DNA of 64,000 nt from the NCBI GenBank assembly GCA_963815115.1, contig CAWFFN010000009.1:1440001-1504000 (forward strand), given 5' to 3'. Under the pieces are notes generated by a model, which saw nothing but the letters and a program-made list of their open reading frames with translations, searched no databases and had not been told where the DNA came from. Positions 32,557-43,877 of the stretch are shown here, one piece after another. How positions within the stretch are numbered: position 1 is the first letter of the stretch; each line of letters starts with the position of its first letter. Origin of the DNA: an uncultured delta proteobacterium. Lineage in GTDB: Bacteria > Desulfobacterota > Binatia > DP-6. The position numbers and the translations under genes are program-made.

Positions 32557-33537
32557 ATGTTCGGGACCCTCGTCACCGCGCGCTCCAACGTCAACGTTGC
32601 CCTCGTGAAATACTGGGGGAAGCGCGACGCCTCGCTCAACCTCCCGGCCACGGGCAGCATCTCGCTCACCCTCGACGGCCTGTCGGTCGAGGCCGAGGTC
32701 GGCTTCGGCGATGCGTCCACGGACGAGCTGACGATCGACGGCGAGCCCGCGCGAGGTACCGAGCGCGAGCGCCTGGTCGGCTTCCTGGATCTGCTGCGCC
32801 ACGAAGCCCGCCGCGTGGATCGCGCACGCGTCTCGACCCGCAGCCGCGTACCGCGCGGTGCCGGCCTGGCGTCGTCGGCGGCGGCGTTCGCGGCGCTGGC
32901 GCTCGCCGGCAGCCGGGCGGCGGGCCTGCGGCTCGAGCCGCCGGCGCTCTCCGCGCTCGCGCGGCGCGGCTCGGGCTCGGCTGCACGCTCGATCTTCGGC
33001 GGGTTCGTCGAGTGGCACCGCGGCGAGCGGTACGATGGCACCGACTCGATCGCCGAGCCGCTCCTCGCGCCGAGCGACTGGGACCTGCGCATCGTCGTCG
33101 CGCTCGCCAGCACGGAGGCGAAAGCCGTGTCGTCGCGCGACGGCATGGCGCGCGCCGCGGCGTCGCCGTTCTACCCCGCCTGGGTCGCGGGTGCCGAGCG
33201 CGATCTCGCCGAGGCTCGCGCCGCCGTGCGGACGCGCGATCTGGAAGCGCTCGGCCAGCTGGCGGAGCACAGCGCGCTCAAGATGCACGCGGTCGGCCTG
33301 GCGGCGCGGCCGCCGCTGCTCTACTGGCGCGGCGCCACCGTCGACTGCGTGCAGCGGGTGTGGGCACTGCGTGCCGAGGGCATCCCGGCGTTCGTCACCA
33401 TCGACGCCGGCCCGCAGGTGAAGGTTCTGTGCACGCCGGCCAACGCGGCGAAGGTCGCGCAGGCACTCGGGGACGTCCCGGGCGTGGCGCGCGTGATCAC
33501 CTGTGCGCCGGGCAGCGGCGCCGAGGTGCTCGCGTGA
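32557..33537 (+). CDS. mvaD: Diphosphomevalonate decarboxylase
   Basis: NVALVKYWGKRD, GLASSAAAFAAL, ARRGSGSAARS, SSRDGM, TIDAGPQVK. Confidence 0.95.
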   Translation: MFGTLVTARSNVNVALVKYWGKRDASLNLPATGSISLTLDGLSVEAEVGFGDASTDELTIDGEPARGTERERLVGFLDLLRHEARRVDRARVSTRSRVPRGAGLASSAAAFAALALAGSRAAGLRLEPPALSALARRGSGSAARSIFGGFVEWHRGERYDGTDSIAEPLLAPSDWDLRIVVALASTEAKAVSSRDGMARAAASPFYPAWVAGAERDLAEARAAVRTRDLEALGQLAEHSALKMHAVGLAARPPLLYWRGATVDCVQRVWALRAEGIPAFVTIDAGPQVKVLCTPANAAKVAQALGDVPGVARVITCAPGSGAEVLA

Positions 33538-34493
33538 GCGTGACGGCACGCGCGCCCGGCAAGCTCTTCATCACCGGCGAGTGGGCCGTGCTGCGCGGCG
33601 CGCCGGCGCTGGTCGCCGCCGTGGACCGTCATGCGTCGGTCACGGTCGAGCCTGGCGGCGACGGGATCGTCGTCGAGTCGGTCGCGGAAGGTCGCAGCGA
33701 TCATCTGGATGGCGCAGGGGACGGCCCGCTGCCCGGTGGTGATGCGGGCGCGGTGCTGGCCGCGCTGCGCCAGCGCCGCGAGCCGCCACGCGCGCTCCGC
33801 ATCGCGGTCGACTCGTGCGCGTTCCTCGTCGGAGAGCGCAAGCTCGGGCTCGGTCGCAGTGCGGCGACGCTGGTGGCTGCGAGCGCGGCGCTGGCGGCGG
33901 GGGAGACCCCCGCGCAGCTCCTCGGTCGCGCACTCGAGGCGAACGCGCTCTTCCAGGCAGGGCAGGGCAGCGGGGCCGACGTGGCCGCGGCGGTGCACGG
34001 TGGCGTCGTGGAGGTCCGGCGCAGCGCGGACGGGCTCGCCGTCGCCTCGCGAACGCTCCCGGCGGGCCTCCATCTCGTCGCCGGCTGGACGGGGACGCCC
34101 GCGCCGACGACGCCGCTGCTGGTGCGCTTCGCCACCTCGCCGACGCCGGCCGCCCTGGCCGACCTCTCGGCGGCCGCCGTCGCGGCAGCCGACGCCGTGA
34201 CACGGGGCGACGCGGCGACGCTGCTCGACGCGGTGGAGCGCTCCGCGGCGCTCCTGGTCCGGCTCGGCGCCGAGCTGGATCTGCCGCTGGTGACGCCGGC
34301 GCTCGCCACGCTGGTGCGTGTCGCGAACCGCGTCGGCGCCGCGGCGAAGCCGTCGGGCGCCGGAGCGGGCGATTGCGGCATCGCCCTGGCCACCTCGCTG
34401 GCGCAGGCGGCGGCGGTGCGGGCCGCGTGGCAGGACGCCGGCATCCTGCCATTGCCGGTACGGGTGGCGGAGCGCGGGGTGAGCGTTGGCTGA
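33534..34493 (+). CDS. Phosphomevalonate kinase (GHMP family)
   Basis: APGKLFITGEWAVL, KLGLGRSAA, GSGADVAA, KPSGAGAGDCG; GTG overlaps the mvaD stop. Confidence 0.88.
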   Translation: MSVTARAPGKLFITGEWAVLRGAPALVAAVDRHASVTVEPGGDGIVVESVAEGRSDHLDGAGDGPLPGGDAGAVLAALRQRREPPRALRIAVDSCAFLVGERKLGLGRSAATLVAASAALAAGETPAQLLGRALEANALFQAGQGSGADVAAAVHGGVVEVRRSADGLAVASRTLPAGLHLVAGWTGTPAPTTPLLVRFATSPTPAALADLSAAAVAAADAVTRGDAATLLDAVERSAALLVRLGAELDLPLVTPALATLVRVANRVGAAAKPSGAGAGDCGIALATSLAQAAAVRAAWQDAGILPLPVRVAERGVSVG

Positions 34494-35556
34494 GCCGATC
34501 GCCGAGCGCAAGCGCGCGCACCTCGATCTGTGCGAGCAGGCCGAGGTGGAGTACGCGCGCAAGACGACGCTCTTGGAGGAGGTCGAGCTGGTGCACGACG
34601 CGCTCCCCGAGCTGGCCCTCGCCGAGGTCGACGTCTCGACCGGACTGCTCGGCAAGCGACTGCGTGCGCCCCTGCTCATCACGGGCATGACGGGGGGGAC
34701 GAGCGAGGCGGCCGACATCAACCAGGCGCTGGCGCAGGTCGCCGAGGAGCACGGCATCGCCTTCGGCCTCGGCTCGCAGCGCGCCATGCAGCGGGCGCCG
34801 GAGCTCGAGTACACCTTCGCGGTGCGCACCCACGCGCCGACGGCGCTGGTCCTCGCCAACCTCGGCATGGTGCAGGCGGGCGCGCTACGGTCGTCGGAGG
34901 TCGAGCGCCTGGTGCAGCGGGTCGGCGCCGATGCCGTCTGCATCCATCTCAACCCGGCGCAGGAGCTCATCCAGCCCGGCGGCGACCGCGACTTCCGCGG
35001 CGGTCTCGCCACCTTCGCTCGCCTGGTCCGCGACCTGCCGGTGTCCGTGGTGGCGAAGGAGACCGGCTGCGGCATCTCGCGCGACGTCGCGGCGCGCCTG
35101 CGCGACGTCGGGGTGCGGACCATCGACGTCTCCGGCGCCGGCGGCACGTCATGGGTCAAGGTCGAGACGCTGCGTGCGGACGCCGCGGGGCGCGACCTGG
35201 GCGAGGAGTTTGCCGACTGGGGCATTCCCACGGGCGCGGCGGTGGCCGGGTTGCGTGGCGTCGGCGTGGAGGTCATCGCCAGCGGCGGCATCCGCAGCGG
35301 GCTCGACGTGGCCAAGGCGGTGGCGCTGGGTGCCCGCGGGGCGGGCGTTGCGCTGCCCGTGTTCCGGGCCTATCGCGAGGGTGGCGTGGTCGCGGCGGGG
35401 CGCTTCGTCGAGCGGCTGGTGGACGGACTGCGGACCGCGATGGTGCTCACCGGCTCGCGCGACCTCGAGGCCCTGGGGCGAACGCCGCTTGTGATAGGGC
35501 GTCGCTTGCGAGATTGGCTCACCCGTTGGCCGACCCCGGAGGAGGTGCATGCCTAG
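34486..35556 (+). CDS. fni: Type 2 isopentenyl-diphosphate isomerase
   Basis: RKRAHL, HDALPE, GMTGG, GSQR, HLNPAQE, KETGCG, GAGGTSW, SGGIR. Confidence 0.95.
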   Translation: MAEPIAERKRAHLDLCEQAEVEYARKTTLLEEVELVHDALPELALAEVDVSTGLLGKRLRAPLLITGMTGGTSEAADINQALAQVAEEHGIAFGLGSQRAMQRAPELEYTFAVRTHAPTALVLANLGMVQAGALRSSEVERLVQRVGADAVCIHLNPAQELIQPGGDRDFRGGLATFARLVRDLPVSVVAKETGCGISRDVAARLRDVGVRTIDVSGAGGTSWVKVETLRADAAGRDLGEEFADWGIPTGAAVAGLRGVGVEVIASGGIRSGLDVAKAVALGARGAGVALPVFRAYREGGVVAAGRFVERLVDGLRTAMVLTGSRDLEALGRTPLVIGRRLRDWLTRWPTPEEVHA

Positions 35557-43226: not shown

Positions 43227-43244
43227 CGGCAAGGAGGACGCGGC

Positions 43245-43877
43245 ATGGACTTTCGCGAGGTCATCGAGACGACGCCGACCTGCCGCTTCTACCGGCCGGA
43301 TCCGGTGCCGGACGACGTGCTGCGCCGGGTGCTCGATGCCGCCCGCTGGGCGCCGACGGGCGGCAACCGCCAGGGCGTGCGCTTCATCGTGGTGCGCGAC
43401 CCCGGCCGGCGGCGGCAGCTGAAGGCATGGTACCTTCCGCTGTGGGAGCAGTACGTGTCGCGCGCGACCTCGCGTGACGGTGCACCGATGCCGCGGCTGC
43501 TCGCGAACGCCGACCACTTCGCGCACCATCTCGACGAGGTGCCGGTGCTGATCGTGGTGTGCGCGCAGCTCGGCGACCTGATGGCGACCGACCGCCATCT
43601 CGACCGCCTCTCGCTCGTCGGCGGCGCGTCGGTCTATCCCGCGGTGCAGAACCTGCTGCTGGCGGCGCGGGCCGAGGGCCTCGGGACCGCGCTCACCACG
43701 CTGCTCTGCGCCCTCGAGCCACAGGTGAAGGAGCTGCTCCAAATTCCCGACGGCATCGCGACGGCGGCCACGGTCGCCCTCGGCCATCCCGCCCGCGGCT
43801 TCCCGAAGCGGCTGGCACGCCGGCCGCTCGAGGAATTCTGCTTCGCGGACGCCTACGGAGCGCCGCTCTTCGCCTGA
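43245..43877 (+). CDS. Nitroreductase-family flavoprotein
   Basis: CRFYRPDPVPD, AARWAPTGGNRQ, GASVYPAVQNLLLAARAEGLG. Confidence 0.88.
   Translation: MDFREVIETTPTCRFYRPDPVPDDVLRRVLDAARWAPTGGNRQGVRFIVVRDPGRRRQLKAWYLPLWEQYVSRATSRDGAPMPRLLANADHFAHHLDEVPVLIVVCAQLGDLMATDRHLDRLSLVGGASVYPAVQNLLLAARAEGLGTALTTLLCALEPQVKELLQIPDGIATAATVALGHPARGFPKRLARRPLEEFCFADAYGAPLFA

Follow-up and report, generated by a model that had tools for sequence, protein, structure and literature searches.

The stretch of DNA analyzed here, called the window throughout, comprises 64,000 nucleotides (64 kb) from an uncultured delta proteobacterium of the Binatia, and all coordinates are those of the window. Its subject is a terpenoid locus in which an operon for the mevalonate (MVA) pathway is followed by genes for an atypical member of the squalene-hopene cyclase (SHC) family, HpnC, a cytochrome P450 and a nitroreductase-superfamily flavoprotein (NTR). 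The original prediction, made from the sequence without database searches, had proposed that these genes form a cluster leading to an oxidized non-hopane triterpenoid. G+C content is about 70% over the whole window, and a three-phase G+C (GC3) frame plot gave clean frames that back every gene call in the region. Profile models and a translation check confirmed the proposed identities, ends and spacings of the MVA operon, cyclase, hpnC, P450 and nitroreductase genes, and the reading of the region as a terpenoid locus is supported. The features of the locus are as follows.

31942–32496, plus strand: small WLM/SprT-like gene leading the mevalonate operon, start ATG at 31942; a weak match to Pfam WLM (25.2 bits, cutoff 26)
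32557–33537, plus strand: mvaD, diphosphomevalonate decarboxylase; TIGR01240 257.6 bits (cutoff 171.35), Pfam MVD-like_N and MDD_C
33534–34493, plus strand: GHMP kinase, probable phosphomevalonate kinase (pmk); GHMP_kinases_N and GHMP_kinases_C, TIGR01220 128.3 bits, under the cutoff of 165.7
34486–35556, plus strand: fni, type 2 isopentenyl-diphosphate isomerase; TIGR02151 360.2 bits (cutoff 281.3)
35549–36832, plus strand: class II HMG-CoA reductase (HMGR); PF00368 337.5 bits, TIGR00532 390.2 bits (cutoff 259.95)
36862–37767, plus strand: mvk, mevalonate kinase; TIGR00549 211.3 bits (cutoff 163.05), ATG at 36862 being the first in-frame start
37764–38969, minus strand: secreted PNP_UDP_1 (MTA/SAH-nucleosidase-like) protein; PF01048 66.4 bits, a minus-strand gene in the frame plot, N-terminal signal-like sequence
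38970–39124, no strand: divergent intergenic region, presumed promoter of the shc-like operon; 155 bp separating two divergent start codons, with no sigma-70-like site in a consensus scan
39125–41086, plus strand: SHC-family protein without the DxDD catalytic motif; PF13249, PF13243, TIGR01507 642.5 bits (cutoff 431.1)
40307–40324, plus strand: SVDVSA, at the canonical DxDD(S/T)A site, from alignment to D374–A379 (DVDDTA) of the A. acidocaldarius SHC and a translation check
41083–41946, plus strand: hpnC (SQS_PSY family, HpnC type); TIGR03464 298.8 bits (cutoff 250.45)
41973–43226, plus strand: CYP124-family cytochrome P450; 492 bits to PDB 2wm4/6t0f over the full length, 26-nt gap after hpnC
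43245–43877, plus strand: nitroreductase-superfamily flavoprotein; PF00881 85.5 bits (gathering score 23.5), 18-nt gap after the P450 gene
43853–45430, minus strand: hisS, convergent gene bounding the operon; TIGR00442 317.5 bits, 25-nt overlap with the 3' end of the nitroreductase gene

The original prediction had all of these pathway genes co-oriented, having overlooked the minus-strand gene at 37764–38969 that interrupts the run. This nucleosidase-like gene fills the 1.36 kb separating mvk from the cyclase-like gene, convergent with the former and divergent from the latter. Because it parts the mevalonate operon from shc–hpnC–P450–nitroreductase, the region is two transcription units and not one co-oriented run. 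Within the second unit, the hpnC start overlaps the end of the cyclase-like gene by 4 nt (ATGA), and hpnC is translationally coupled to it. AAGGAG-type ribosome-binding sites lie upstream of the starts of the P450 gene (AAGGAGAG) and of the nitroreductase-family gene (AAGGAGGA). A consensus scan of 31800–45600 returned no promoter-like sites (0.3 expected from shuffles) and no terminator-like sites (2.0 expected), an outcome that is uninformative at 73% G+C. The database copy of the cyclase-like gene starts at 39158 and encodes 642 aa.

The cyclase-like protein is built of two alpha/alpha-toroid domains (PF13249, 353.8 bits; PF13243, 384.7 bits), passes the TIGR01507 squalene-hopene cyclase model, and aligns over its full length (495 bits) with the A. 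acidocaldarius SHC (PDB 1gsz, 2sqc), which has the same two-domain architecture. The roles assigned to its active-site residues, and the list of 27 active-site positions used below, are those we take to be established in the SHC structural literature. The claim that the cyclase is atypical held up: the DxDD(T/S)A motif expected of a squalene-hopene cyclase is absent, SVDVSA aligning with DVDDTA of the A. acidocaldarius enzyme. Relative to the latter, the window protein carries D374S, D377V, F365A, F367P, I261A, Y267R, Y495H, F601V, F605A and Y612F, and keeps W169, Q262, P263, D313, D376, D447 and W489 (A. acidocaldarius numbering). The cavity aromatics F365, F601, F605, Y609, Y612 and W312 are thus represented by A, V, A, Y, F and W, and the cavity is not conserved as a set. 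Passages of one paper describe the DxDDTA motif as the initiator of polycyclization (PMC7232578).

For relatives, the cyclase protein was scanned against one genome per species; 94 stretches matched and 28 loci were confirmed, the window itself not being among them. They belong mostly to Candidatus Binatia or to metagenome-assembled genomes labeled 'delta proteobacterium', with more distant ones in Chloroflexota, Solirubrobacteraceae and others, and the best carries a cyclase 78% identical to that of the window. DxDD was found in 21 loci and xxDV in six (L001, L002, L007, L010, L012 and the window's type), while L003 reads N-V-G-V, with no Asp at all. In a quick IQ-TREE search over 29 rows, the seven variant rows (six loci and the window) formed one clade with an SH-aLRT of 100; its stem is long, at 0.30, and its sister is the canonical L004. 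In this clade DxDD(S/T)A has become xxDVSA, F365 is replaced by A or V, F601 by V, and F605 by A, T or S; the subclade of the window also varies at W312, Y609, Y612, Y495 and G600. The substitution H451R was considered as a part of the active-site change and set aside, Arg being present also in canonical Binatia cyclases.

The gene order of the 28 loci was compared by tblastn and Pfam, and three arrangements were distinguished. The usual Binatia order (type A) runs MVA operon, shc, mvaS, hpnC, hpnD, hpnE, sometimes with hpnH and hpnG; it is found in L004, L005, L006, L009 and L015, is partly visible in L008, L011, L013, L014 and L016, and includes hpnH and hpnG in L005, L006 and L009. HpnD is encoded in nine loci (L004, L005, L006, L008, L009, L011, L013, L014 and L015) at 51–100% identity to that of L004, and HpnE follows it in the five loci with the complete type A order. 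In type B (L007, L010 and L012), the MVA operon and shc are followed by a degenerate mvaS-like gene (TIGR01835 100 bits, cutoff 360; the mvaS of L004 scores 341), hpnC and then a PTPS-family gene, and neither hpnD nor hpnE lies within 10 kb. Type C (the window, L001, L002 and L003), which is the window's subclade, has shc, hpnC (absent in L003), P450 and nitroreductase. No hpnD or hpnE was found in any of the seven variant loci, window included, each with 10 kb downstream visible. The WLM-like gene at the head of the operon occupies the same position in L001, L002, L004, L007, L010 and L012, at 69–83% identity.

A wider sample was taken from the 3078 proteins at E ≤1e-50 among 8000 scored candidates: the best 120 of the 3078 were aligned with the 28 loci and the window, giving 149 rows. 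The alignment holds 112 canonical sequences (D-x-D-D, near-invariant at 22 inspected sites), one sequence gapped at the motif and 36 without DxDD. Thirty non-redundant sequences of these 36 make up the window's clade, at an identity of at least 63% to the window. Since P0084 (D-V-P-T) and P0097 (S-V-P-G) stand outside this clade and have also lost DxDD, the motif was lost more than once. The central catalytic Asp (D376) is replaced in five of the 30 clade sequences (by E in one, R in one and G in three), so that sequencing error does not explain the loss in L003. Of 138 columns at least 97% conserved in canonical cyclases, 21 are in the active-site list and 117 outside it; the clade retains the canonical residue at a rate of 91% in the outer columns and 53% in the active-site columns. 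Retention is 3% for D374, 0% for D377, 13% for F365, 0% for F601, 0% for F605, 19% for Y609, 15% for Y612 and 40% for W312. New residues have also been fixed, with D377V in 29 of the 30 sequences and F601 always V, I or H.

Evolutionary rates were compared with those of the neighboring genes. The SHC distance, taken relative to the average for mvaD, fni and HMGR, amounts to 0.78–0.98 in 15 canonical pairs and 1.29–2.16 in 21 clade pairs, and the relative rate of HpnC is near 1. The ratio of nonsynonymous to synonymous substitution (dN/dS) of the cyclase-like gene is 0.08–0.29, and 0.22–0.29 for the window against L001–L003, by the Nei-Gojobori (NG86) method, whose synonymous sites are here saturated and GC3-biased; against the same three loci, mvaD gives 0.22–0.27 and hisS 0.28–0.30. 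By these sequence measures the gene is under purifying selection and not decaying, because its dN/dS is like that of its neighbors, the structural columns are retained and new residues have been fixed. Plain decay, with the gene a functionless pseudogene in the making, would account for the lost catalytic residues, the 1.3–2.2-fold faster evolution relative to the MVA enzymes and the loss of partner genes from the locus, extending to hpnC in L003. It is nonetheless very unlikely, given 30 non-redundant full or near-full open reading frames (ORFs) without disruption down to 63% identity, in addition to the low dN/dS, the 91% retention at conserved structural columns and the newly fixed residues.

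The active site itself behaves differently among the types. At the 27 pre-listed codons, the proportion of nonsynonymous differences (pN) is 0.00–0.04 in 10 canonical pairs against 0.22–0.31 in the rest of the gene; in six type C pairs it is 0.16–0.27 against 0.13–0.19, and in three type B pairs 0.00–0.01 against 0.03–0.09. Because active-site pN is close to or above that of the rest of the gene in type C, the old catalytic cavity appears to have lost its special constraint in the window's subclade while the remainder has been maintained. A defined cyclic product is unlikely because the former active-site residues vary between the type C genomes without special constraint, and the oxidized cyclic non-hopane triterpenoid of the original prediction is accordingly disfavored.

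A neofunctionalized cyclase would be a working class II enzyme using single-Asp initiation of the oxidosqualene-cyclase kind on an activated substrate, such as a P450-derived epoxide or alcohol, or on the hydroxysqualene of HpnC, and would yield an oxidized, not fully cyclized triterpenoid. Several observations are in line with it: the gene is intact and selected, D376 persists in 83% of the clade alongside the fixed D377V and the V, I or H at position 601, cavity residues including F365 (to A or V) have become smaller, the active site is conserved in type B, and the operon is tight and conserved in L001–L003. In the A. acidocaldarius enzyme, the F365A substitution is known to give bicyclic products. 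We nevertheless regard this explanation as rather unlikely. W312, Y609, Y612 and positions 267, 451, 600 and 605 differ between the genomes of the window's subclade, in which active-site pN equals or exceeds that of the rest of the gene, and the Asp itself has become G, R or E in five of 30 sequences. Moreover, there is no Cys adjoining the Asp as in oxidosqualene cyclases, no squalene epoxidase lies in the window, and the type B loci carry the same motif without the P450.

The P450 and the nitroreductase gene stand beside the cyclase in three of the 28 related loci, namely the three closest ones (L001–L003). The expectation of the original prediction that the pair would be conserved next to the cyclase in relatives was thus borne out there, and failed in the other 25, including the type B loci with the same motif. 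P450 orthologues in L001–L003 are 83–85% identical and nitroreductase orthologues 79–84% identical. The order cyclase–P450–NTR is kept in all four type C genomes, although both flanks of the block differ among relatives; in L002 a GFO/IDH/MocA oxidoreductase gene (14058–15044, plus strand) is inserted, with the P450 on one side and the nitroreductase on the other.

That the P450 resembles CYP124 was confirmed by its full-length match to PDB 2wm4/6t0f. Some 55% of its aligned residues are identical to those of M. tuberculosis CYP124 (224 of 409, a hand count from the printed alignment), and the FCLG heme cysteine, AGNETT (I-helix) and EEIVR motifs of the window protein are intact. P450 enzymes sharing more than 40% identity are assigned to the same family, which places the window protein in CYP124. 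Many homologues exist at 70–92% identity, several of them named 'methyl-branched lipid omega-hydroxylase' by their source. Contigs of equal size, which we read as the same contigs, occur in the cyclase and P450 match lists at 1936190 (the window), 11373, 6187, 893470 (L003) and 19322; three contigs beyond the window and L003 thus appear, among the matches listed, to bear a variant cyclase together with a close P450. Close P450 homologues (at least 80%) also occur on long contigs whose sizes correspond to none of the cyclases listed (384397, 43273, 68791, 104788, 48810, 74988 and 122096), and because there are many of these, the P450 does not generally go with the cyclase.

None of the named subfamilies accommodates the nitroreductase-fold protein, whether judged by NCBIfam models, solved relatives or the protein atlas. 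It scores below every NCBIfam equivalog cutoff (BluB 68.9 against 150, FbiB C-terminal 42.4 against 249.55, RutE-like 42.3 against 152), and its solved relatives are distant (best E 6.5e-14). The atlas describes it just as 'nitroreductase family', with Binatota as the commonest taxon; its family comprises 85 representative clusters at E ≤1e-30. Fusions among its homologues, considered for hints of function, gave mixed partners (BrkB, PNPOx, F420H2 quinone reductase-like, glyoxalase, EthD and YCII), none of them a P450. The suggestion that this flavoprotein stands in for a reductive step, taken as that of HpnE, does not fit the comparison of loci: substitution for HpnE is unlikely because L003 has the flavoprotein but lacks hpnC, and the type B loci have hpnC but lack the flavoprotein.

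These distributions also bear on the idea of two unrelated modules, in which the shc-like gene and hpnC would be a relic, and the P450 and nitroreductase a separate lipid or xenobiotic oxidation pair sharing the promoter by accident. The abundance of close P450 homologues on long contigs without a listed cyclase match speaks for it, as do the absence of the pair from 25 of 28 loci, the insertion that splits the pair in L002 and the varying flanks of the block. Such a chance association is unlikely, however, since the cyclase–P450–NTR order persists in the four subclade genomes despite changed flanks, three further contigs appear to hold both genes, and the 26- and 18-nt gaps are too short for separate promoters.

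HpnC of the window is identified by TIGR03464, which it passes, while its score with the HpnD model is 165.8 bits against a cutoff of 278.6; the closest solved relative is the HpnC of PDB 4hd1 (203 bits). Both Asp-rich motifs, DDLAD and QDVAGD, can be recognized. Twelve canonical HpnC sequences share 38 invariant columns; 35 of these are unchanged in all six clade sequences, the three exceptions being one variable Gly and two conservative changes found in the window only. Relatives' HpnD, HpnE, HpnH and HpnG gave no tblastn match in the 64 kb, save for a cross-match of HpnD on hpnC. When HpnC and HpnD profiles (the latter from 120 HpnD homologues) were run against 538 six-frame ORFs of at least 60 aa, hpnC was the sole SQS_PSY member. 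The presence of hpnC without hpnD and hpnE, which the original prediction had described, therefore extends to all 64 kb by both tblastn and profile search, and the unit that HpnC forms with HpnD and HpnE is incomplete within the window.

Pairing of HpnD and cyclase contigs by identical size gave nine matches among those listed, all with canonical cyclases. No HpnD was found on eight variant-cyclase contigs longer than 10 kb (including the window's 1.94 Mb, and others of 1.25 Mb and 0.89 Mb) among the best 120 HpnD homologues, which are 73–95% identical to that of L004; this pairing is weak evidence, as it registers only same-contig genes at 73% identity or more. Parts of Santana-Molina et al. 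2020 (PMC7306690) report that hpnC, hpnD and hpnE co-occur irregularly, mostly through gene loss and sometimes in connection with the presence of Sqs; the incomplete hpnCDE sets described in those parts include neither a DxDD-less cyclase nor an added P450 and nitroreductase.

Ordinary hopanoid biosynthesis would have the cyclase make hopene, with hpnD and hpnE elsewhere in the genome and the P450 modifying hopanoids. The TIGR01507 score well over its cutoff, the intact HpnC and the adjacent mevalonate operon, arranged as in hopanoid-encoding relatives, are what it predicts. It is highly improbable all the same, given the missing DxDD initiator motif and the loss of cavity aromatics that do not vary among 112 homologues; the occurrence of HpnD on nine canonical-cyclase contigs and on none of the eight variant ones, among the best 120 HpnD homologues, adds a weak argument in the same direction.

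Taken with the synteny, the evolutionary pattern points to a derived and partly dismantled Binatia mevalonate–hopanoid supercluster whose cyclase-like protein probably no longer cyclizes, a reading to which we assign a probability of roughly 55%. All five genes of the MVA operon (mvaD, pmk, fni, the class II HMGR gene and mvk) are intact, and the hopanoid half has lost hpnD, hpnE, bacterial-type mvaS, hpnH and hpnG from the locus. Under this reading, with SVDV in place of the catalytic motif and small aliphatic or polar residues instead of the cation-stabilizing aromatics at positions 365, 601 and 605, the SHC-like protein should not protonate squalene efficiently or produce hopene. Because its former cavity varies freely in the subclade of the window, it would most likely be kept for a non-cyclizing role, for example the binding of isoprenoid lipids at the membrane. 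HpnC, normal in sequence, should still turn presqualene diphosphate into hydroxysqualene, for which it would need a source of presqualene diphosphate elsewhere in the genome. The P450 and the nitroreductase-fold flavoprotein were added behind hpnC in no other subclade than that of the window; their genes have good ribosome-binding sites and follow at short gaps, and the secreted nucleosidase-like gene is likewise an addition. All four genes (shc-like, hpnC, P450 and nitroreductase) would be transcribed from the 155-bp divergent region at 38970–39124, and the P450, by homology, would hydroxylate a methyl-branched or isoprenoid chain at its terminal methyl.

Several points weigh against this reading of a dismantled, non-cyclizing locus. 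D376 is kept in 83% of the clade and D313, D447, W489 and Q262 in 100%, which may mean a weaker or differently initiated cyclization; the loss of cyclase activity, although probable, is read from sequence alone. The conserved altered active site of type B fits a new enzymatic function at least there, in a weak test among close relatives. The tight operon, together with the retention of the cyclase–P450–NTR trio in L003 without hpnC, suggests a shared function that dismantling does not explain. Only 64 kb are visible, and hpnD, hpnE, sqs or a second cyclase may lie elsewhere in the genome. Among the numbers, the saturation and GC3 bias of the NG86 estimates count here, and the 15 sites with a type C pN of 0.30–0.49 against a proportion of synonymous differences (pS) of 0.17–0.67 at the same codons were picked after the variation was seen.

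The unbroken association of the cyclase-like protein with the P450 and the flavoprotein in all four type C genomes, despite the changed flanks, allows for a joint function. One may picture the SHC-fold protein without DxDD as recruited into a new CYP124-dependent isoprenoid pathway, either as a membrane partner that binds isoprenoids and presents them to the P450 or as a single-Asp cyclase acting on a P450-activated C30 compound. Fed by the mevalonate operon and HpnC, such a pathway would give a new oxidized, acyclic or partly cyclized triterpenoid of soil Binatia. We put this forward as a speculative proposal with the odds clearly against it.

Among known systems, the canonical Binatia hopanoid cluster of type A is the closest. 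It lies in the same place after the same MVA operon, and its cyclase (45–59% identical) and HpnC (51–67% identical) are orthologous to those of the window, whose clade is nested within the Binatia cyclases as a sister to L004. It differs in that the window lacks hpnD, hpnE, hpnH, hpnG and bacterial-type mvaS in 64 kb, as well as DxDD and the cavity aromatics, and adds the P450, the nitroreductase-fold gene and the secreted nucleosidase-like gene. Oxidosqualene cyclases have a single catalytic Asp, in a VxDCTA motif. The window protein likewise has a single motif Asp, the pattern expected for a substrate protonated more easily than an alkene; unlike them, it has V and not Cys after this Asp, scores 268.8 bits with TIGR03463 (cutoff 851) and matches lanosterol synthase at 171 bits. 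CYP124A1 of M. tuberculosis, a methyl-branched lipid omega-hydroxylase, shares with the window P450 the heme and I-helix motifs. It comes from another phylum, whereas the window gene stands behind a cyclase-like gene and hpnC, and omega-hydroxylation here would follow from homology.

Literature linking an SHC-fold protein or squalene-hopene cyclase with a CYP124-type P450 was not found in a search whose scope was sources other than subscription journals and supplements, and none was found on Binatota and mevalonate. Sources on Binatota with hopanoids and on hopanoid–P450 clusters, in the portions available, held nothing bearing on the locus. In the available portion of a 2025 survey of triterpenoid cyclases, a DxD variant is described in MstE, and neither 'Binat' nor 'P450' is mentioned (PMC12414744).

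Genomes and metagenomes are commonly screened for shc to infer which organisms produce hopanoids. The clade described here, with at least 30 non-redundant sequences, passes the curated hopene-cyclase model and is labeled 'squalene-hopene cyclase' in its source records, yet lacks the catalytic motif; surveys based on shc would therefore overcount hopanoid producers among the Binatia, a common uncultured soil lineage. The clade is also an example from nature of a class II terpene cyclase that stays under selection after loss of its acid, a candidate for a pseudoenzyme or for new initiation chemistry.

Turning to the neighboring genes, four MVA enzymes (mvaD, fni, HMGR and mvk) exceed their equivalog cutoffs and the pmk candidate, which has a GTG start and overlaps the mvaD stop by 4 nt, falls under its own. 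No bacterial-type mvaS was found in the window by tblastn with relatives' mvaS or by a profile search of ORFs. The window also encodes a protein resembling archaeal-type HMG-CoA synthase, with a zinc-ribbon/OB (DUF35) domain fused to it (3188–4573, plus strand; NF003274 159.6 bits, under the cutoff of 244) and a thiolase (23459–24634, plus strand; NF004810 615 bits), which together may stand in for the bacterial-type mvaS of the relatives' shc neighborhood. A DUF35–thiolase fusion was seen near the locus in L007, L010 and L012.

The secreted nucleosidase-like protein is 54% identical to a homologue in L003, where the gene is full-length and on the opposite strand (6331–7614, plus strand); in L001 it is truncated (8681–9163, minus strand), and the interval from mvk to the cyclase differs in every type C genome. 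The possibility that this gene is HpnG was rejected on a TIGR03468 score of 25.5 bits (cutoff 187.1) and a local match of just 32 residues to the HpnG of L005. A PTPS/QueD-family gene directly follows hpnC or hpnE in L004 (16716–17465), L007 (13725–14387), L010 and L012; the window has one at 63469–63966 (plus strand), 20 kb from the hopanoid genes, and this recurrent neighbor has no obvious role.

Elsewhere in the window, pieces of RND efflux systems were noted (AcrB C-terminal parts at 720–1913 and 13605–14369, and an HlyD fragment at 14729–15235); the frame plot is irregular at 10.5–16 kb, and these pieces may represent disrupted or frameshifted genes. At about 57598–62021 (minus strand), an acrB-like gene is present in intact form, along with a membrane-fusion gene. 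Regulatory genes include a sigma-54-dependent response regulator with its histidine kinase (7451–10282, minus strand), in keeping with a Gram-negative lineage of deltaproteobacterial type such as Binatia, and a 1405-residue fusion of CheB methylesterase, CheR methyltransferase, PAS domains and histidine kinase (45607–49824, plus strand), which is overlapped by 4 nt by a LuxR-type response regulator gene (49821–50432, plus strand). A virginiamycin B lyase-family beta-propeller protein and two DUF7450-repeat proteins are encoded at 19967–21328 (minus strand), 29831–31207 (minus strand) and 62294–63370 (plus strand).

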